A stretch of 64,000 nt of DNA from an uncultured Poribacteria bacterium (lineage in GTDB: Bacteria > Poribacteria > WGA-4E > WGA-3G). A program made the translations under genes and the position numbers. The notes under the pieces were generated by a model. That model made no database searches and was not told the origin of the DNA. It worked only from the letters and a program-made list of their open reading frames with translations. Below are positions 40,517 to 53,143 of the stretch, piece after piece (the first letter of the stretch is position 1; each line of letters opens with the position of its first letter). Location: positions 3,776,001 through 3,840,000 of the forward strand of contig OX638351.1 of assembly GCA_951813565.1 (NCBI GenBank), written 5' to 3'.

Positions 40517-41626
40517 ATGAAGCATCTGAATCTTCGCATGTATGCTATGGTTATTGCCCTCATCTGTATTTGGGTGATCTTTACGTTGGCGACTGGCGGA
40601 ACCTTCTTCAAAGGTCGCAACCTATTTAACCTCTCTCGTCAAGCCGCAGTAACTGCTATTCTCGCCATCGGCATGGTGCTTGTCATTATCTCTGCCAACA
40701 TCGACCTGTCTGTCGGCTTCGGGGCAGGATTGCTCGGTGCAATTGCCGCGATTCTACACGTTTGGTGGAAACTACCGATTATCTCAACACTTTTCATAGT
40801 TATTTGTATCGGAATCTTGATAGGACTGATACATGGTTTTCTCGTGGCGTATCAGCGTATTCCAGCGTTTATTGTCACGCTCGGCGGATTTTTAGTATAT
40901 CGTGGTCTGATGTTAGCATTTACAAAAGGCGAGACAATCGCGCTCCCTGACAACTGGCTGAAAGCAATTGGTACTGCTCACTTGCCACCGACAGTTGGAT
41001 GGATTCTCATGCTTGTTGGTATCAGTATCAGTGGATATGTGTTTTTCCGACAACTTGCTTCCTTGCAGTTTAGCCGCAATTTTAAAACTTACATATCTCC
41101 GACTTTAAAATTGATTGGTACGTGCGGGTGCATTGTTGCATTTGTCATCGTAATGAATTCTTACAAAGGTATCCCGATTCAGGCGTGCATCCTACTCGGA
41201 TTGGCATTTGTATTTCACTTCATAGCGAACCATACCCGTTTCGGACGTTACGTGTATGCCGTTGGCGGTAATGCGGAGGCAGCCTATCTCTCTGGGATTA
41301 ACGTGCGGAGCGTAACGTTGCGGGTGTTTGCAATCATGGGAGCATTAATGGCGATCGCTGGTATTGTTATGACAGCACGCTTGGGTAGTGCTGGTCCTGA
41401 AGCCGGACGTCTGCTTGAGTTAGATGCTATTGCAGCTTGTGTTATCGGCGGTGCCAGCTTAATGGGTGGGCGCGGTAGCATTTTCGGTGCTATCTTAGGC
41501 GCACTCGTCATGGCAAGCCTGAGCAACGGAATGAGTATGGTAAATATGGGCACCGCATGGCAGGATGTTGTAAAAGGCGTTGTACTCGCTGCAGCTGTTG
41601 GCTTTGACATAGCATCGCGAAAGTGA
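40517..41626 (+). CDS. Sugar ABC transporter permease (XylH-like)
   Basis: IDLSVG, FIVTLGG, YAVGGN and ELDAIAACVIGG motifs. Confidence 0.92.
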   Translation: MKHLNLRMYAMVIALICIWVIFTLATGGTFFKGRNLFNLSRQAAVTAILAIGMVLVIISANIDLSVGFGAGLLGAIAAILHVWWKLPIISTLFIVICIGILIGLIHGFLVAYQRIPAFIVTLGGFLVYRGLMLAFTKGETIALPDNWLKAIGTAHLPPTVGWILMLVGISISGYVFFRQLASLQFSRNFKTYISPTLKLIGTCGCIVAFVIVMNSYKGIPIQACILLGLAFVFHFIANHTRFGRYVYAVGGNAEAAYLSGINVRSVTLRVFAIMGALMAIAGIVMTARLGSAGPEAGRLLELDAIAACVIGGASLMGGRGSIFGAILGALVMASLSNGMSMVNMGTAWQDVVKGVVLAAAVGFDIASRK

Positions 41627-41636
41627 TTTTATGCAT

Positions 41637-41940
41637 GTTGGGTTTCGCACGCTCTACCCATAGATGTCAATTTAAAAAAACATGACACACCTATTCCGAC
41701 TCGGTAGGAGCGTTTCTAACCACTCCGTATTATCTCAAAGGGTCTTGTGGGAGGCGTTTTCAACGCCGATATATCGCGCGGACAAAGCGCTCCACAAAGA
41801 GGTCTTGCCAAGAGTGACAACCAGATAAAGTAAGTCCGATTTATTACCCAAAGGTAGGCGCGTTTACAAAACGCGCCTACCAGGGTGGTGTGCCGCTAAA
41901 TTGACAGTTATGGGTTTCGCACGCTGCCACCCAACCTACG
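41637..41940. repeat. Family D unit flanked by REP halves, with internal REPs
   Basis: GGGTTTCGCACGCT occurs on both sides of CCCATAGATGTCAATTT...AAATTGACAGTTATGGG. Confidence 0.7.
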
Positions 41941-42110
41941 AGATAATGTAATATAATCACTTAGAAATGGTATAGGCTGTGGGTACTATGACTCAAACGT
42001 TTTTAAACTACTGCCCAAATTCCTCAATTAAAATCTTTTTCGCATTTTTTTAAACCGTTTTCCTAAATTCTCCCCTCTTTATAACCGAAATCTAATTGGG
42101 AATTCTGTTT

Positions 42111-45100
42111 ATGCACTACAATTTTATCACTCCAAACAACTTAACAGATGCAGAACTGGTTCGGCTTGTTCAAGCTCGCGATGAATCAGCATTCACGGAA
42201 TTGGTGTCTCGTTATAGCCCACGAATTTGGAATATCGTTGTCGAAAATTCGAGGCAAAGACGGGATGCGGAAGAAATTCTCATGGACATCTGGCTGGCTG
42301 TTTGGGAAAACATCATCGGTCTACGAAAAGCGGAAAGTTTTGGCGGCTGGTTACGCAGAATTGCTTACACCGCCTGCAACAGATACTACGCCTCCAACTT
42401 ACATCGGCAAAACGAAATTGTGCTTAGTTATGAAGATTTAGCTTTGCAGATTGATAGAGAAGCAGAACAGCGTTTTCATGATGCAAGCCTCAGAGCAGAT
42501 GCAAGAGAGGCTGTCCATCACCTTCCACAGAAGGTGCGGTCTGTTGGAATATTGTACTACCTCGAATTGTGGAGTATCAAAGAGATTGCAGATGAACTCA
42601 ACTTAGCAATCGGCACAGTCAAGACGAAGCTAAGCGAAGTCCGACAACTGCTCCGCAAGGAATTTGAGGTAGAGATAGAACCTATAAGGAGGGGAACTAT
42701 GACTCTTGAACAGAAAAAATCTGATAATTTGCAAACCAAGATAAAAGTTATAGGAGTCGGCGGAGCAGGTTGCAATGCTATAAAACGAATGATTGAAGAA
42801 GACTTCGTAGGCATTGAATTCTGTGCTGTTGATACCGATAAGGACACACTTAGCACATGCAACGGTGCAACACAAGTGCAAATAGGTGTTAACACTACTC
42901 AAGGCAGTAGCGCAGATGGAAATTTGGAAATCGGGAAAAGAGCGGCTGCGGAAAACATGGATGAACTCCGATCTATTGTTTCAGACGCAAAAATGGTTTT
43001 CATTACCGCAGGCATGGGCGGTGGAACCGGCACAGCCACTGCACCTCTAATAGCGTCGCTTGCACGAGAGCAAGGGGCATTAACAGCCTGCTTTGTAACA
43101 CGCCCGTTCGATTCTGAAGGCGAACACCGTGCTGAAAAAGCGGCGTATGGATTACGAGAATTGCAAAATAGTTCACGTGTCTGTGCGGATGCTGTTGTCG
43201 TTGTGCCGAACCAACGAGTTCTTGATATGATTGACCAAGAATTGCCGATACAGGAAGCGTTCCAAAAAAGCGATGAAATCCTGGTCCAAGGCGTTAGATG
43301 CATTGCAGATATGCTTGTAGAAACTGGCGAAATTTCTCTTGACTTTGATGATATTCAAAGTGTGCTGCGTGACCAAGGGTCTATTCTCATGGGTATTGGA
43401 AAAGCAAAAGGTGAAAATCGCGCGAAAATCGCTGCAGAAAACGCAATTTCCTCTCCTTTACTTGAAGAAAACAGTATTGCGGGAGACGGTGTGTGGATTG
43501 TTAACATTGCCTCGCCGCCAAATTTCACAATGCAGGAATTGGATCAAGCCATGAAAATCATTGTAGAAACATGTGAAAATGCCCAACCTATCTTCGGATT
43601 AGTCTACAAGGATGAATTAGAACTTAACGATGAAGTTCTTGTAACTGTCCTTGCTAATGGACTTGATTCACAAAAAGAACAGGTTTCTCCAATTTCTTCC
43701 AGCGAACGTAGTGCATCTACTGGCCAAGGCAATGTTATTTCGCCTTCAAGCGGTTCAGAATTTGTTCATCTACACAATCACAGTGAATATAGCTTGTTAG
43801 ACGGTGCGTGTCGAATCCCAGATATGGTGCAGTGGGCAATTGAGAACAGTTCGCCTGCTGTTGCACTTACAGACCACGGTAACATGTTCGGTGCGTGGGA
43901 ATTTTACAACACTGCTAAAGCAGCAGGTGTTAATCCCATTGTCGGATGTGAGGTATATGTTGAAACGGAAAAAGAAAAATCAGATAGCAATTCCCAATGT
44001 TCACCGTCCCATCTCACCTTACTTGCAGAAGACACTGTAGGATATCATAATCTTTTAGAATTGACATCACTGGGATATACAGAAGGTTTCCATAGAAAAC
44101 CGCGCATCAACCTGGAAATGCTGCGTGAACATCACGGTGGCATTATTGCACTGACAGGATGCATTAATGGAATAGTGCCGAAGCTAATTTGTTCTAATCA
44201 AAGAGACGAAGCAGTCCGAAACTTGTTAGAATTGAAAGACATCATGGGAGAGGATAACCTCTTTGTAGAAGTTCAAAACCACTATACTGATGAGGAGTTA
44301 ACGACATATCCAGTGATGGTTGAGTTCGCAAATGAATTCAATCTTCCTATCGTGGGGTCAAACGATTGCCACTACCTCCGAAAATCCGACCACCGCATGC
44401 ACGAGGTCCTTCTCTGTATCCAGACAAAGAAGACCGTCAACGACCCAGAACGGATGCGATTTAACAATCATTTTTACTTTAAAAATGTTGACGAAATGCG
44501 GGAAGCACTTAAGGATTATCCACCCGAAGCAATTATCAATACAGTTGAAATTGCTGATCGGTGTAATCTGAAACTGGATTACGACAAAAGTGTGATGCCA
44601 ATATTTGAGATTCCTGATGGACATACACATAACAGTTATCTGAAAGAACAGTGCTACAAAGGTTTGCAAGAAAAATATGGAGGACATATCTCTGAACCGA
44701 TTCATAGGCGGTTGGATTATGAACTGGATGTTATTCAACAAACTGGTTATGCAAATTATTTTCTGATTGTCGCAGATTACGTCGGCTACGCCAACGAACA
44801 AGGTTATTTACTCTCTGCTCGCGGTTCTGCTGCAAGTAGCCTCGTGCTTTATGCGCTCGGTGTAATCAATTTCAATCCGATGGATCATGGGTGTTTGTTT
44901 GAAAGGTTTTTAAATCTTAATAGAATAAATCCGCCGGACATTGATATAGATTTTGCTGCCCATGCCCGTGACGATGTGATTGATTACCTCGTGAGGAAAT
45001 ACGGTCATGATTCTGTCGGTAAAGTTGCTACCTTTGCTAAGTTGGGGGCAAAAACTGCTATCAAAGATGTCGGACGTGCACTTGAAATCCCTCTTGATAA

Positions 45101-46403
45101 CATAGATACCTTGACAAAACTAATTCCAAACCAGCCGGGGATTGCGCTTGATGATGCTTTGGAACAAGTGTCTGAATTTCAGACGCTTGCTGAACTCCCT
45201 GAAAATAGAGAGTTAATTGAAATTAGCAGAGCAGTAGAAGGTATGAAACGGCATGTCTCATGTCATTCATCTGCAATTGTGGTTTCAAACGGACCACTTA
45301 GCAATTACGCCCCACTTTTCAAGGATAGACATGGACAAATCGCAACGCAATTTGAGGGAAAAACGGTTGAAGATGTTGGCATTATTAAACTTGATACACT
45401 TGGTGTCCGAAGTCTTTCAGAGGTTGCTGATTGTCTCAATATGATTCTGGAAAACCGTGGTCGCAGGATTGCACTTGAAGATATTCCATTTGACGATAAA
45501 CCGACTTATTCACTCATTAGTGAAGGATTGATTGCTGGGTTGTTCCAACTCGAAACCTCTTTCGGTATGTATAATGTGGTTACCGAACTTAAGCCAGAAA
45601 ATTTTGAGGTATTTTCCGCAATTCCTGCGCTTTATCGTCCAGGTCCGTTAGAAAGCGGCATGATGCAGCAGTTTATCAACCGAAAAAATGGATTAGAATC
45701 GGTGAGTTATCTGCATGCGTCGTTTGAGGATGCCCTTAAAAACACTTACGGTGTCTGTATCTATCAGGAACAGGTGATGCAAATTGCGTGTGATATTGCC
45801 GGGTTCACGCTTGGTGAGGCAGATATCCTCCGTGATGCGATAGGAAAAAGGAAAGTAGACGTCCTTGAAGAACAACGTCCGAAATTCATCAATAGGGCAG
45901 TTCAAAAGGGTATTTCCACTAAAGAAGCAGAGGAGATATACGACCACCTTGAACAACTTGGCAAATATGCTTTCAACAAATCGCACTCCGTAGCTTATGC
46001 GCTATTAGCCTACCGAATGGCGTATCTAAAAACGCATTATCCACATGAATTTATGGCAGCAATGATGACGGGAGAGGCAGCAAACAAAGAAAAGATAAAG
46101 CGTTACCAAGCTGAATGTGCGAAACTCGCTGACTTTTTGGATGTAGAAATTAATCTGTTACCGCTTGATATCAACACCAGCGAAAAGAATTGCACTGTGG
46201 ATGGAAACGATATCCGTTTCGGGTTTGTTGCTCTCAAAGGCGTGAGTGATGAAGTGAAAGATTTACTTCTTGTGAAAAGAAATCAGGACGGTTTATTCAC
46301 ATCGATTCAAGATTTCCGTGATCGTTTTGATTCAACAGAGATGGACAAAGAAGTGATTGAAAGTCTCGTCGCCTCAGGTGCATTTAACGCTCTTCCCGCA
46401 TAA
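42111..46403 (+). CDS. ECF sigma factor / FtsZ / DNA polymerase III alpha (DnaE) fusion protein
   Basis: Sigma2 and sigma4 motifs (~42140-42665); FtsZ motifs IKVIGVGGAG and GMGGGTGT (~42738-43662); DnaE motifs FVHLHNHSEYSLLDG, PDIDIDF, KLDTLG and FNKSHS (43758-46403). Confidence 0.9.
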   Translation: MHYNFITPNNLTDAELVRLVQARDESAFTELVSRYSPRIWNIVVENSRQRRDAEEILMDIWLAVWENIIGLRKAESFGGWLRRIAYTACNRYYASNLHRQNEIVLSYEDLALQIDREAEQRFHDASLRADAREAVHHLPQKVRSVGILYYLELWSIKEIADELNLAIGTVKTKLSEVRQLLRKEFEVEIEPIRRGTMTLEQKKSDNLQTKIKVIGVGGAGCNAIKRMIEEDFVGIEFCAVDTDKDTLSTCNGATQVQIGVNTTQGSSADGNLEIGKRAAAENMDELRSIVSDAKMVFITAGMGGGTGTATAPLIASLAREQGALTACFVTRPFDSEGEHRAEKAAYGLRELQNSSRVCADAVVVVPNQRVLDMIDQELPIQEAFQKSDEILVQGVRCIADMLVETGEISLDFDDIQSVLRDQGSILMGIGKAKGENRAKIAAENAISSPLLEENSIAGDGVWIVNIASPPNFTMQELDQAMKIIVETCENAQPIFGLVYKDELELNDEVLVTVLANGLDSQKEQVSPISSSERSASTGQGNVISPSSGSEFVHLHNHSEYSLLDGACRIPDMVQWAIENSSPAVALTDHGNMFGAWEFYNTAKAAGVNPIVGCEVYVETEKEKSDSNSQCSPSHLTLLAEDTVGYHNLLELTSLGYTEGFHRKPRINLEMLREHHGGIIALTGCINGIVPKLICSNQRDEAVRNLLELKDIMGEDNLFVEVQNHYTDEELTTYPVMVEFANEFNLPIVGSNDCHYLRKSDHRMHEVLLCIQTKKTVNDPERMRFNNHFYFKNVDEMREALKDYPPEAIINTVEIADRCNLKLDYDKSVMPIFEIPDGHTHNSYLKEQCYKGLQEKYGGHISEPIHRRLDYELDVIQQTGYANYFLIVADYVGYANEQGYLLSARGSAASSLVLYALGVINFNPMDHGCLFERFLNLNRINPPDIDIDFAAHARDDVIDYLVRKYGHDSVGKVATFAKLGAKTAIKDVGRALEIPLDNIDTLTKLIPNQPGIALDDALEQVSEFQTLAELPENRELIEISRAVEGMKRHVSCHSSAIVVSNGPLSNYAPLFKDRHGQIATQFEGKTVEDVGIIKLDTLGVRSLSEVADCLNMILENRGRRIALEDIPFDDKPTYSLISEGLIAGLFQLETSFGMYNVVTELKPENFEVFSAIPALYRPGPLESGMMQQFINRKNGLESVSYLHASFEDALKNTYGVCIYQEQVMQIACDIAGFTLGEADILRDAIGKRKVDVLEEQRPKFINRAVQKGISTKEAEEIYDHLEQLGKYAFNKSHSVAYALLAYRMAYLKTHYPHEFMAAMMTGEAANKEKIKRYQAECAKLADFLDVEINLLPLDINTSEKNCTVDGNDIRFGFVALKGVSDEVKDLLLVKRNQDGLFTSIQDFRDRFDSTEMDKEVIESLVASGAFNALPA

Positions 46404-46483
46404 TACATCTTTCCTACCATCATGGGCAGGTCATTGTGTCTGCCCATCTTTATGTGCCGATTCCATCCCCTCTTACAAATGGA

Positions 46484-46512
46484 TTGACTTTCCATAAAAT
46501 ATCTGATATACT
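46484..46512 (+). promoter_or_regulatory. Sigma70 promoter
   Basis: TTGACT, 17-bp spacer, TATACT, with an extended -10 TG. Confidence 0.55.
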
Positions 46513-46588
46513 TACAGAAACAGGCGCAGTTGATTGTAGGGTTCAAATTTATCCTTCACATTACCTTTATACTTCAGGAGATGGCGCG

Positions 46589-47260
46589 ATGCAACCCAAA
46601 ATACACTCAGCCCCAGCAATCGTCTATCCCGAATCGGACGGTAAACCTATGGCAGAGACTGACTTACATCGAAATCTGATGTTTGATTATATTAAAATGC
46701 TAACACACCATTTTGAAAACAGGAATGACGTTTATGTATCGGGCAATTTGCTGATATACTATGAAGAAGGCAACCCCAAAAAGTCGGTTGCGCCTGATGT
46801 GTTTGTCGTCTTCGGCGTATCAGAAAAATCCCGTCGTACCTTTTTGACATGGGAAGAGGGGCAAACCCCAGACTTTGTGTTAGAGGTAGCAAGTGCCAGC
46901 ACACATCAAAACGACATCGGACATAAGAAAGATCTTTATGCGTCAGTACTTGAAGTTGAAGAGTATTATATCTACGATCCGTATGGCGAGATAAGTCCGA
47001 ACTTCATAGGTTACCGTTTAGTAGAAGGGGCATATCAAGAAATTGAGTTTGTTGATGAACGACTCCCTTCGCGTGTGCTTGGTTTAGAACTCGGTGAACG
47101 TGATGGTGTATTTGGTCTATACAACCCAGATACTGGAGAATGGTTGCAACCGCCTGAACAGCGTGCCGAACAAGAATCCGCTGCTCGGAAAGACGCTGAA
47201 GCTGAACTTGCAAAAGCCTTAGCTGAACTTGAACGTCTTCGTGCAACCATCAACGATTGA
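46589..47260 (+). CDS. Uma2 family (PD-(D/E)XK) endonuclease
   Basis: YPESDGKPMAET, APDVFV, LEVAS and EYYIYDP motifs. Confidence 0.92.
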   Translation: MQPKIHSAPAIVYPESDGKPMAETDLHRNLMFDYIKMLTHHFENRNDVYVSGNLLIYYEEGNPKKSVAPDVFVVFGVSEKSRRTFLTWEEGQTPDFVLEVASASTHQNDIGHKKDLYASVLEVEEYYIYDPYGEISPNFIGYRLVEGAYQEIEFVDERLPSRVLGLELGERDGVFGLYNPDTGEWLQPPEQRAEQESAARKDAEAELAKALAELERLRATIND

Positions 47261-49806: not shown

Positions 49807-52800
49807 CTATTCATCAAGGGCGAAACGTAGCACACCCCGTCTGAATGTGCCAACATAGAGCGTATTCCCATCAACATCAAGACAAGAAACAGGATACGGA
49901 ATTTCTGGAGTGACTTGATGCCAAGTGTCTGAACCCTCCTGCAGTTGATATACTTTTCGCCTTGCAGTGCTGTAAACCGTTGTGCCATCCACAGCAAACC
50001 TAACCACGACAAGAGGAATTCCCTCTGCGTCAGTAAGCGTCTGCCAGTCAGTGCCATTTCTTGACCGAATAACACCTTTGTCGGTTGCCACATAAACAGA
50101 GTTTCCAACGAAAGTTATTGCATTGAAACGTCCAACAGAAAATGGTAGATTTTCGGTAACATCGTTCCAAGTGTCGCCTTCATCAAACGATTGCATGAGG
50201 CGTCCATCCCGTTTGCCGACGTAAACAGTTTTTCCTGAAACGGCAAACCATAAATTCTTGGCAATGACAAATTTGGAATTTAAGTCTATATGAATAGGTT
50301 TATCTATATCCGATATTCCTGTGTTGTACCAATTCAGGGATCCAATACGCCATCTGAAGAGTTCGTTTTGATATTCTAAGTAGTAAGCTGTGTCTGTAAC
50401 CGAGAAATTTCCAAGATGTGCCACAATTAGAAATTGGTTTTCGTTTTGACTAAGCTCAATCCACTCATGCGAAAATTGGCTCTTTGTCAAACCGAGTACA
50501 TTTTTCAAAACGGGTACTCTTGGAATATCTGTGAAGCTATTTCCTTCGGAAGACAATCGCAAAAAACGAGATGTACCTTTTCTACCTATACTGGCATAGA
50601 GTTCTCCATTGAATACTTCAATGTGTGTGAAGTCACTCGTATCGTTGGAAAAGGGTATCCATGATTCTCCATCATCAATAGAATACACAAGTCCAGTTTC
50701 TGTGTTCGCGTAAAGAGTCCCGTTAAGAACAATTAATTGTTGGACATTCGTATTCACAAGTCCGGTATTAAATTGATGCCACGACTTACCACTATCAGTT
50801 GAGCGATGAATCCCGTGAGTACCGCTTCTAAAGATAGTAGTTGCATTCAACATTACTGCCCCGGTAGCACTACTAATTTTGTCAGCCCCAACTTCAACTG
50901 TCGCCTTTTTTCCAGCATCAATTGAGTAGAATTCGCCTGCAGCTAAAGATGTCCACTCCTCACCAGCATCAATTGAGTAGAAGTGATCCTCACCGTCCAT
51001 CACCATCACTTTTACTCCGGATGCGGTAATCTTGGGAATTGAATTTTCCGCATTTGCCCATTGTATTTCTGATATTGCATAAGTGCTGTCTGGTAATTTA
51101 TTCACCTGTGGTTCTCTCTTTGGAGAACGACGGTTTTGAAGCTGTTTCTTGTCAGGAGAATCATACCTCGGAGTTATAGATTTCCACGAATTACCACGGT
51201 CGGTTGAGTGAAAAAGGGACCAAGCGATTCTTAGGGCTTCATTTCCCCTTAATTCTATCCAGCCTGGCAATTGTTTATCAGAAGGTGGAATAACAGTTGT
51301 GATGATACTTTCTGAACCGACTTTATATAATAGACCATCAGAAAATATCACTCCTTCCATTATTGCTGCAACATAGAGATGATTTTCTGTAACTACTAAC
51401 GCTACGATATCAAGTGTCTCATCTTGTGCATCCTCAGGATTGATAGATACTTGCTCCCACGTATCAGAATTAAGACGAAAGAGTCCTTTATCGGTACCCG
51501 CAAAGACAGTATTCTCAATCGCGGCGATTGCTTTAATTTTCTTGTCTTTTAGACCTTCGGGTAGTAGGGTCCACGATTTACCTGCATTATCCGTACGGAA
51601 TACTACGTTAGTATACGCAAGGTAGATAGTCATGTCGCTTAGTGCACCTGGAATTCCATCTGTTATTACCATATCAACAAGTGGTCCTTCTATAGACTCA
51701 CAGAGTGTCTCCCATGTTTCTCCTCTATCTGTAGAAGCCAGTATCTCATTCATGGTCGCGAGGTAGAGCGTATCCTGACGTTCTACTACGGGCCACCACA
51801 TTGGACTGGGTGTCAGTAAAGTGTGTGAAGGTCCCTTAGTGTTATTAATAAGTTTCCACGCAGTACCATCATCTGTGAGTCTGTATAAACCGTGTCGTGT
51901 GCCTGCGAACACGTCCCCACGGGTTGTTGTGAAGAGCCCAGACACTAAACCGCCTTCCGGTCCTTTCGTTTGTACCCACTGTTGTTTTGCGTTTGAAACC
52001 TCAGTTTCATCTGCGTTCGCTGCAGCGAATAGTGGATCATCAGGTTTCTGTCCTACCCCATTGCTCTTACCTGTTAAATCCACATGTCCAACTTGATTTC
52101 TCACTGCAGGTTTTGCTGGAGAATCAATGACAAGTTGTGCTTCTGATATTTCAATTGTTCGTTCTGATTGTGCGTTTAAGTTATACGGCTTTTGAAAATC
52201 ACTAAGACGTTGTGTGCCAATTCCCATCAGCAATAGCACTAAGACTGCAGAGGCAGCAGACATTGCTAACGGCACAAGTGGCTTACTGCCTGAAGGTGCG
52301 ACCGGATTAAGTCGTGAAATTTCTTTCATAATGTTTTCTGTCATTTGTGTTGGCAGTTGGAAACTACTAAGGTTTTCTTTAATCATTGTTTCCTCTTTCT
52401 TTAATCGGTTGCGGGCGCGGCTAAGACGGCTCCTAACAGTATTTGGGGATACACCGAGAAACTCGCTAATAGATTCACACTTCATTTCTCCAAGATAGTG
52501 AAGCGTCATCACTGTTCGTTCGCTTTCTGGCAATTTTTTGAGCAAATCTCTAACCAGTTCACGCCGAATTTCGTTAGCATCTGCCTCTCGCTGTTCTTCC
52601 ACGTATTGTGTATATGCCACTTGGTCCACCTCTTTGCTATCAACGGTTTCTAAGGATTGTATCGGCAGGCGTTTCTTTCGGAGCCATTCATTACACAGGT
52701 TAGTGGCAATAACATAGAGCCACCCACAAAATAGGTTGTGATTTTTCAAAGTTCCGAGTTTTTGATATGCCCTAAGAAAAACGTCCTGTGTAATTTCCTG

Positions 52801-52935
52801 TGCGATATGAAAATCACCAATTTTCTGCCATGCCAGCGCGTGTACGCCCTTTTGATATTTTTCTACTAAGGCGGTGAACGCTGATTGATCACCGTCTAAT
52901 GTACGCTGAATCAGTTCAGCATCCTTCTTTTTCAT
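49807..52935 (-). CDS. ECF sigma factor fused via a TM helix to a BNR/Asp-box beta-propeller
   Basis: AQEITQDVFLRAY and TVRSRLSRAR sigma motifs, a TM, and S.D.G..W repeats; GGAGG RBS. Confidence 0.9.
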   Translation of the reverse strand: MKKKDAELIQRTLDGDQSAFTALVEKYQKGVHALAWQKIGDFHIAQEITQDVFLRAYQKLGTLKNHNLFCGWLYVIATNLCNEWLRKKRLPIQSLETVDSKEVDQVAYTQYVEEQREADANEIRRELVRDLLKKLPESERTVMTLHYLGEMKCESISEFLGVSPNTVRSRLSRARNRLKKEETMIKENLSSFQLPTQMTENIMKEISRLNPVAPSGSKPLVPLAMSAASAVLVLLLMGIGTQRLSDFQKPYNLNAQSERTIEISEAQLVIDSPAKPAVRNQVGHVDLTGKSNGVGQKPDDPLFAAANADETEVSNAKQQWVQTKGPEGGLVSGLFTTTRGDVFAGTRHGLYRLTDDGTAWKLINNTKGPSHTLLTPSPMWWPVVERQDTLYLATMNEILASTDRGETWETLCESIEGPLVDMVITDGIPGALSDMTIYLAYTNVVFRTDNAGKSWTLLPEGLKDKKIKAIAAIENTVFAGTDKGLFRLNSDTWEQVSINPEDAQDETLDIVALVVTENHLYVAAIMEGVIFSDGLLYKVGSESIITTVIPPSDKQLPGWIELRGNEALRIAWSLFHSTDRGNSWKSITPRYDSPDKKQLQNRRSPKREPQVNKLPDSTYAISEIQWANAENSIPKITASGVKVMVMDGEDHFYSIDAGEEWTSLAAGEFYSIDAGKKATVEVGADKISSATGAVMLNATTIFRSGTHGIHRSTDSGKSWHQFNTGLVNTNVQQLIVLNGTLYANTETGLVYSIDDGESWIPFSNDTSDFTHIEVFNGELYASIGRKGTSRFLRLSSEGNSFTDIPRVPVLKNVLGLTKSQFSHEWIELSQNENQFLIVAHLGNFSVTDTAYYLEYQNELFRWRIGSLNWYNTGISDIDKPIHIDLNSKFVIAKNLWFAVSGKTVYVGKRDGRLMQSFDEGDTWNDVTENLPFSVGRFNAITFVGNSVYVATDKGVIRSRNGTDWQTLTDAEGIPLVVVRFAVDGTTVYSTARRKVYQLQEGSDTWHQVTPEIPYPVSCLDVDGNTLYVGTFRRGVLRFALDE

Positions 52936-53143
52936 GGGAATCCTCCGGAGTTTTAGCATCCCTTGATTAATTAGACGCATCTTAGATCGTAAAATGTTGC
53001 ATTTTTTTTATGGTGAGCAGAAAATTAAATAATTTTCAATTTGTTGGCAATTATGTTATACTTTCATGCTATACTTTAATAGAAGCACACTGTAATGAAA
53101 AGGATTTTATAACCTTATATATTCACTTGGGTGGAGGAAAGGA

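Follow-up and report, generated by a model that had tools for sequence, protein, structure and literature searches.

A conserved internal Shine-Dalgarno sequence and start codon at the sigma-FtsZ junction of a Poribacteria fusion gene

A sigma-FtsZ-DnaE gene in one reading frame

The window analyzed here is a stretch of 64,000 nucleotides (positions 3776001-3840000 of contig C1) from the single-contig, 5.43-Mb genome of an uncultured, sponge-symbiotic Poribacteria bacterium (GCA_951813565.1, OX638351.1). On its forward strand lies an open reading frame (ORF) of 1430 codons in which an extracytoplasmic function (ECF) sigma factor, an FtsZ paralogue and a C-terminally truncated DnaE are encoded in one frame. 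Where the sigma part joins the FtsZ part, a Shine-Dalgarno (SD) sequence stands in front of an in-frame ATG (Met197), and this internal site is the subject of the present study. All coordinates are window positions unless a contig is named, and those of the features are collected in Table 1.

Both elements of an ECF-type core, region 2 and region 4, are present in the sigma module (Pfam Sigma70_r2, PF04542, at residues 31-95 with 26.3 bits; Sigma70_r4_2, PF08281, at residues 131-183 with 35.4 bits), which also matches the NCBIfam model TIGR02937 with 63.5 bits against a cut-off of 42.9. The FtsZ part is complete: TIGR00065 is matched over residues 200-528 with 306.6 bits (cut-off 295.2), and both the GTPase and the C-terminal domain are found. 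It is a second copy, 60% identical to the canonical FtsZ that is encoded elsewhere in the genome by a 449-amino-acid (aa) frame (395.9 bits). The DnaE part is not full-length: its match to TIGR00594 (993.6 bits) spans 1-881 of the 1022 profile positions, where the ORF comes to its end; the canonical DnaE (C1:815534-818179) matches positions 1-1022 and is 69% identical to the DnaE of the fusion. The DnaE part (43755-46403) stops after the helix-hairpin-helix domain, and the next ORF, 46436-47260 (274 aa), is not the missing C-terminus as judged by eye. The genome has a second sigma-FtsZ gene, a 412-aa paralogue that consists of sigma and the FtsZ GTPase domain.

An assembly or sequencing artefact was ruled out, because three DNA runs, which belong to two studies, yielded contigs with the same unbroken frame (one of the runs is possibly the source sample). 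A contig of run X3 spans 41764-46500 with 0 differences, contigs of runs X2 and X6 bridge both junctions, and the ORF is free of indels.

The internal Shine-Dalgarno sequence and start codon

The preliminary description of this DNA, which was made from the sequence alone, had noted AGGAGG at 42687-42692, six nucleotides before an in-frame ATG at 42699 and just after sigma region 4; the sequence and the Pfam positions confirm it. The spacer is GGAACT, the protein context is ..EIEPIRRGTMTLEQKK.., and Met197 lies 13 residues past the end of the Pfam match to sigma region 4 (residue 183) and 13 residues before the start of the Tubulin/FtsZ match (210-374). The site is thus a potential start at codon 197 of a longer ORF, in the frame of that ORF.

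The 3' end of the 16S rRNA of this genome carries the canonical anti-SD sequence (..GATCACCTCCTTTCT / CACCTCCTTTCT). The internal SD is complementary to it at a working spacing, with a duplex free energy (dG) of -11.6, and its GGAGG starts at -11, which is identical to the modal GGAGG start of the genome. Among the 33 in-frame ATGs of the gene a strong SD precedes Met197 only (the next best has a dG of -4.9, Met1 one of -4.2). Across the genome SDs are in wide use: a core SD was found before the first ATG in 50% and a strong SD in 26% of 2897 long ORFs; before internal in-frame ATGs (n = 17998) the corresponding values are 8.8% and 1.2%. In a single gene an SD with an ATG is not beyond chance (32 internal ATGs at 1.2% each), and the site at 42699 is significant because it is conserved across homologues.

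Table 1. Coordinates of the sigma-FtsZ-DnaE gene, its parts and its start-site elements in the window
Feature	Position	Strand	Remarks
Promoter-like motif TTTAAACC-N17-CCTCTTTA	42049..42081	+	Candidate autoregulatory ECF-type promoter
SD-like TGGGA	42097..42101	+	Invariant in 14 aligned upstream regions; dG only -4.2
Whole nested gene	42111..46403	+	1430-aa long product (ATG 42111) and predicted 1234-aa short product (ATG 42699), common stop
ECF sigma module	42111..42698	+	Residues 1-196: region 2, region 4, linker
Internal Shine-Dalgarno AGGAGG	42687..42692	+	Codes Arg-Arg; duplex dG -11.6
Internal start codon ATG, Met197	42699..42701	+	In frame; 42699-42111 = 588 nt = 196 codons
FtsZ paralogue	42699..43694	+	Residues 197-528; Pfam Tubulin 210-374, FtsZ_C 423-519
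DnaE paralogue	43755..46400	+	Residues 549-1430; PHP, DNA_pol3_alpha, finger, HHH_6 domains

Conservation of the junction

Junctions were read by eye at 54 loci (28 of the same genus and 26 of other genera of the family or paralogues with other partners), and a pooled census of all loci, including 69 named ones, comprised 121 records that reduced to 94 distinct 75-nt junctions, all from Candidatus Poribacteria. At each of the 54 loci a start codon stands at the aligned position and is preceded, at a distance of 5-10 nt, by a run of the GGAG, GGGG or GAGG type. Of the 94 distinct junctions, 91 have ATG and 3 have GTG at the aligned position, 93 have an SD (called at a dG <= -7), and none has an in-frame stop between codons -15 and +10. 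Start and SD are kept down to 47% junction identity and across several genera of Poribacteria, and in 12 triple fusions the ATG at the position of Met197 is invariant.

The junction is found with several different partners. Genes of the same sigma subfamily continue into WD40 propellers, into DnaE alone, or into the FtsZ GTPase domain alone or a 315-aa protein, and at every join the SD is followed by ATG and a Ser or Thr codon. Four loci with a WD40 beta-propeller (L034, L035, L036 and L037 in genomes G013, G017, G020 and G003; 845-901 aa; 57-67% junction identity) have SD, ATG and Ser at the join. A sigma-DnaE gene of about 1105 aa that lacks FtsZ was seen at L027 (G022:C4:126227-130535) and also in G049:C154, with the same junction (..EGENMSDKVDYSKELR..); this form apparently arose from the triple fusion by deletion.

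Persistence of the fused frame

The sigma-FtsZ junction was identified in 105 of the 112 genomes of the family (82 of the 88 high-quality ones), and the extension is thus kept in the reading frame of sigma. The fusions come in forms of about 410 aa (sigma and GTPase domain), about 560-670 aa (sigma and FtsZ) and about 1350-1450 aa (triple fusion), in addition to the sigma-DnaE form without FtsZ in G022 and G049.

Homologues split at the junction, which the preliminary description had pointed to as a check, were not found: there is none among the roughly 150 matches listed from the 112 family genomes, where a stop was seen only once, within sigma in G020, and none among the best 120 of 346 matches, with lengths of 143-455 aa, in a set of 5.8 billion proteins. 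All of these best 120 have sigma domains and 116 also a Tubulin domain (the other 4 are short entries); the named entries among them are from Poribacteria and bear the label 'sigma-70 family RNA polymerase sigma factor' or that of a 'hypothetical protein'. At the G020 locus (L026, G020:C1:4938795-4941527) region 4 of sigma loses its frame after ..GTVKT; the FtsZ ORF behind it is unbroken, with its SD and ATG, and only about 45 residues of DnaE follow. A natural allele without sigma or a homopolymer error of long reads could account for this, and the locus was not used as evidence.

Because no stop follows sigma, sigma can be made solely as a fusion. The mean column identity is 81% in the sigma part (18 homologues) and 63% in the FtsZ part; as sigma is the better conserved part and can arise only within a fusion, the long product should be under selection too.

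Origin of the site and alternative explanations

The canonical FtsZ begins with MIDFEQEEFEKLSAKIKVIG and the FtsZ part of the fusion with MTLEQKKSDNLQTKIKVIG, which puts Met197 within one residue of the canonical start Met. It follows from this alignment that Met197 is the start codon of the paralogue itself and that the SD is its own ribosome-binding site (RBS). The preliminary description had suggested the scar of an operon of sigma and partner that fused by losing a stop codon, and this origin is supported by a junction that carries the RBS and start of the partner gene.

The same alignment raises the question of whether the SD and the ATG are an inert remnant of a separate ftsZ-like gene, with the full-length fusion as the only product. 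The scar origin is real, and expression data do not contradict such a remnant. However, a neutral motif of six nucleotides together with a start codon would be expected to decay in a linker of varying residues and length, and here the two are kept in 93-94 of the 94 junctions. Synonymous codon choice, which the preliminary description had likewise named as a check, is biased in the same direction: in the four codons over the SD, Arg is encoded by AGG or AGA in 46 of 50 cases (22% in the genome) and Gly by GGA or GGG in 49 of 50 (43% in the genome). In these counts 4 of the 54 windows (L017, L025, L027 and L057) were anchored too far upstream, which if anything weakens the signal; the census of the 94 junctions, with its 93 SDs, used the aligned position. 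As a control, 22 conserved Met columns were compared in the 12 orthologous triple fusions, a comparison that retains the relatedness of the sequences. Only at the column of Met197 do all 12 have an SD; at every other internal Met column 0-1 of them do, and at the Met1 column 1 of 12. Start and SD are thus conserved beyond what the encoded protein needs, and an inert scar is improbable.

A purine-rich element might instead act on elongating ribosomes or on the mRNA, either as a pause for the folding of sigma or its docking to RNA polymerase, or as a signal for stability or processing. The element sits exactly at the domain boundary, and the region is weakly structured on average: in 18 of 18 sigma-FtsZ genes the junction mRNA folds less stably than the gene average (mean z-score +0.96). 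SD-induced pausing is itself disputed. An element of this kind needs no in-frame ATG or GTG 5-9 nt downstream, yet all of the 94 junctions have one, and its spacing corresponds to the modal initiation spacing of the genome; we regard this explanation as decidedly improbable.

We consider it very unlikely that the constraint lies in the protein, i.e., that a charged, flexible linker of Lys, Arg, Glu and Gly, followed by a required Met (as in a protease site for the release of sigma), is encoded by purine-rich codons by chance. The linker is rich in these four residues and a proteolytic release of sigma is plausible, the ECF52 fusion being a multi-domain sigma factor according to the available text of PMC5826349. 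The residues over the SD vary, however (RRG, RGK, KGE, EGE, KED, EED, GGN and others), with 33 different strings of four residues in the four codons before the start, and the Arg and Gly codons are nearly always the SD-compatible ones, against the usage of the genome. Moreover, the GTG of three junctions reads as Val in the fusion, so that the start codon is kept and the Met is not.

A programmed frameshift near the SD onto an out-of-frame stop, with a new start at 42699 and no fusion protein, was rejected as extremely unlikely: although 52 of the 94 junctions (that of the window's gene among them) have a -1-frame TGA 8 nt past the start codon, no conserved slippery heptamer occurs at the junction, the out-of-frame stops are inconsistent (in the stretch examined, 22 of the 94 have none in the -1 frame and 75 none in the +1 frame), and an in-frame state without a single junction stop among the roughly 150 loci listed would be needless if the frame were abandoned.

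Other fused ECF genes

With the sigma part as query, 37 ECF-like matches were found in the genome, 29 of them in open frames of at least 280 aa. An ATG or GTG with a dG <= -7.5 occurs just past region 4 in 22 of these 29 fused ECF ORFs, and the usual form of the join is ..LQKEETMIRE.. (encoded by AAGGAGGAAACGATG). Another Poribacteria genome has many long fused ECF frames, and such frames are also present in sister families.

The window holds a second fused ECF gene on the reverse strand (49807-52980; 1057 aa), with sigma region 2 and region 4, a hydrophobic stretch, and Sortilin/Vps10-like and DUF6242 propeller-type matches; at its join, ..KKEETMIKE.., AAAGAGGAAACA is found ahead of an in-frame ATG (dG -7.5). 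At G000:C1:2262529-2264917 (reverse strand) the genome has tandem full-length copies of dnaN, in frames of 419 aa and 376 aa that both exceed the TIGR00663 cut-off; neither is fused to sigma in this genome.

The upstream region and the first start codon

Upstream of the gene, TTTTTAAACC-N17-CTC-TTA is invariant in 14 aligned regions, including that of the 412-aa paralogue, and we regard the motif of this type at 42049-42081 as probably an autoregulatory ECF-type promoter, judging from sequence and position. The 5.43-Mb genome contains only three copies of the motif, one upstream of each sigma-FtsZ gene and one upstream of a MacB/FtsX-like permease. Copies other than that of the window are located at G000:C1:1599324 and G000:C1:2184967; the ABC permease behind the third copy is apparently split into frames of 253 aa and 206 aa, and it is a possible member of the regulon.

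For the first start codon, at 42111, the preliminary description had reported no obvious SD. This holds in so far as only a weak GGGA (42098-42101; dG -4.2) is found, 9 nt before the ATG, but the statement has to be modified in another respect: because TGGGA is invariant in the 14 upstream regions, it is probably a weak but real RBS.

Farther upstream, the intergenic segment 41627-41950 consists of short dispersed repeats and GC-rich hairpins with 187 blastn matches genome-wide; the short-read contigs of three runs break within it and the depth is several-fold higher there.

A nested gene with two predicted products

We propose that the junction is a selected internal initiation site, inherited from the RBS of the partner gene, which probably yields a nested sigma-less FtsZ-DnaE protein beside the full fusion. 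A gene for an FtsZ paralogue, with an RBS and a start of its own, would have become joined to an upstream ECF sigma gene without an intervening stop, and AGGAGG-N6-ATG (42687-42701) would be the original RBS and start of this paralogue, kept by selection as a working internal start. One mRNA, probably transcribed from the ECF-type promoter candidate, would then give two nested proteins: the full sigma-FtsZ-DnaE from the weak RBS at ATG 42111, and the sigma-less FtsZ-DnaE from the strong RBS at ATG 42699. Given the weak RBS at Met1 and the strong one at Met197, the short product is expected to be the more abundant. The free partner may act on the tethered copy, either by co-assembly through FtsZ or by an anti-sigma-like binding of the sigma domain, and its action would set the amount of available sigma. 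That the gene may also make a sigma-less FtsZ-DnaE isoform had been put forward in the preliminary description, and the comparison of homologues supports it by the start and SD in 93-94 of 94 junctions, the choice of synonymous codons in favour of the SD, and the occurrence of the junction with several partners.

Several observations weigh against internal initiation at this site or lend it little help. The 94 junctions are related by descent, and binomial figures therefore overstate their independence. In 7 of the 29 fused ECF genes of the genome no start with a strong SD is present at the join (only a weak SD in 2, none in 5); because of these genes the junction design is common in this genome, not obligatory. 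In the gene of the window the junction is unremarkable in its structure, folding at -9.1 kcal/mol compared to a gene mean of -9.9 kcal/mol, and 43% of the folding windows are as weak or weaker. The sole RNA-library run (X1, with a share of 0.05) matched the gene with a 247-nt contig in the sigma part (42242-42488; depth about 2) and a 40-nt partial match; this library may contain DNA, and contigs cannot reveal transcript ends or isoforms. A scan of 41600-43000 for the sigma-70 consensus gave 2 sites (2.5 expected), none usefully upstream of 42699 on the forward strand, and no terminator-like site was found in the same range; no internal promoter of the sigma-70 type or terminator thus exceeds chance, a result that is neutral on separate transcripts.

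A contact of the sigma domain with the FtsZ domain received weak support from a complex prediction, which scored 0.56 compared to 0.00 for the best of three controls (the runs agree in at least 87% of the contacts, and the partner has a predicted local distance difference test, pLDDT, of at least 80). In the benchmark of this score 116 of the 157 solved complexes tested and 2 of the 215 mismatched pairs passed the mark, and the range up to 0.60 holds 18 of the 157 solved complexes and both of the passing mismatches. The modelled contact speaks for the proposal, and the weakness of its support speaks against it.

Comparison with known systems

CheA-L/S, IF2 and ClpB are the classic cases of internal starts. 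In bacteria, in-frame internal starts that give N-terminally shorter isoforms have been mapped genome-wide by retapamulin-assisted ribosome profiling (Ribo-seq; bioRxiv 10.1101/520783). As far as that source describes them, the junction resembles these isoforms in having an in-frame start with its own SD, nested products with a common C-terminus and a site at a domain boundary. It differs from the mapped starts in four respects: the evidence here comes from comparison, the start was retained from a formerly separate gene, a whole sigma module is removed, and the design recurs over a large paralogous set in one phylum.

In CRISPR systems, large-subunit genes of the Cas10d/Cas8 type are also the source of the small subunit, Cas11, which arises by internal in-frame translation (bioRxiv 10.1101/2020.04.18.045682). 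According to the available part of that study, a single gene there likewise encodes both a large, fusion-like product and its C-terminal part in free form, and the complex needs both products. The proteins are unrelated to those of the present gene, and the function has been demonstrated experimentally in CRISPR systems, whereas here it is predicted from sequence.

ECF sigma factors with fused C-terminal regulatory extensions have been described as ECF41, ECF42, ECF52 and SnoaL-type groups (PMC7826278, PMC3426412, PMC5826349). Like those presented in these sources, the gene of the window has a sigma2-sigma4 core with a conserved extension in the same ORF that presumably controls sigma; unlike them, it is extended by full paralogues of FtsZ and DnaE. 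For the extended groups, the available text of PMC7826278, PMC3426412 and PMC5826349 reports no internal RBS and start at the join, and PMC7826278 contains 0 mentions of FtsZ, tubulin or Poribacteria in its available text (its supplements, with the group descriptions, lie outside this count).

In ordinary sigma/anti-sigma operons the anti-sigma factor is encoded at position +1 and is often translationally coupled (PMC7826278, in the part available). The fusion gene is similar in the order of sigma and partner, in the RBS and start of the partner and in its probable co-transcription from an autoregulated promoter. It is unlike such an operon in that none of the 94 junctions has the stop that defines two genes, and because of this absence every sigma molecule is covalently tied to its partner.

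Our literature searches brought up neither sigma-FtsZ(-DnaE) fusions nor internal starts in fusions of sigma with a partner. Internal starts and fused ECF extensions are each already known; new here is a stop-less sigma-partner gene that keeps the RBS and the start of the partner.

Implications for Poribacteria

A more far-reaching scenario, which we think unlikely as a whole, would make the stop-less nested gene, derived from the sigma/anti-sigma operon, a general socket in Poribacteria, into which nearly any partner gene with an RBS of its own can be plugged behind sigma, in the present case paralogues of the division protein FtsZ and the replicase DnaE. A few sigma-tagged molecules among many free copies would then co-assemble with these, and perhaps with the real FtsZ and the replisome, and sigma would be released or activated only when the assembly is disturbed (e.g., by a cell-cycle transition or a phage inhibitor), so that the system might serve as a decoy-based transcriptional sensor.

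For annotation, the proposed internal initiation would mean that gene callers give one protein where two are probably made. If ribosomes start at 42699, the gene is a two-product unit, in which the ratio of tethered sigma to free FtsZ-DnaE is written into two RBSs of very different strength. The junction would then give a testable handle on the regulation of the unexplained sigma fusions of Poribacteria and, since its design is found in most of the fused ECF genes of this genome, it may represent a lineage-wide wiring of sigma factors to sensors.

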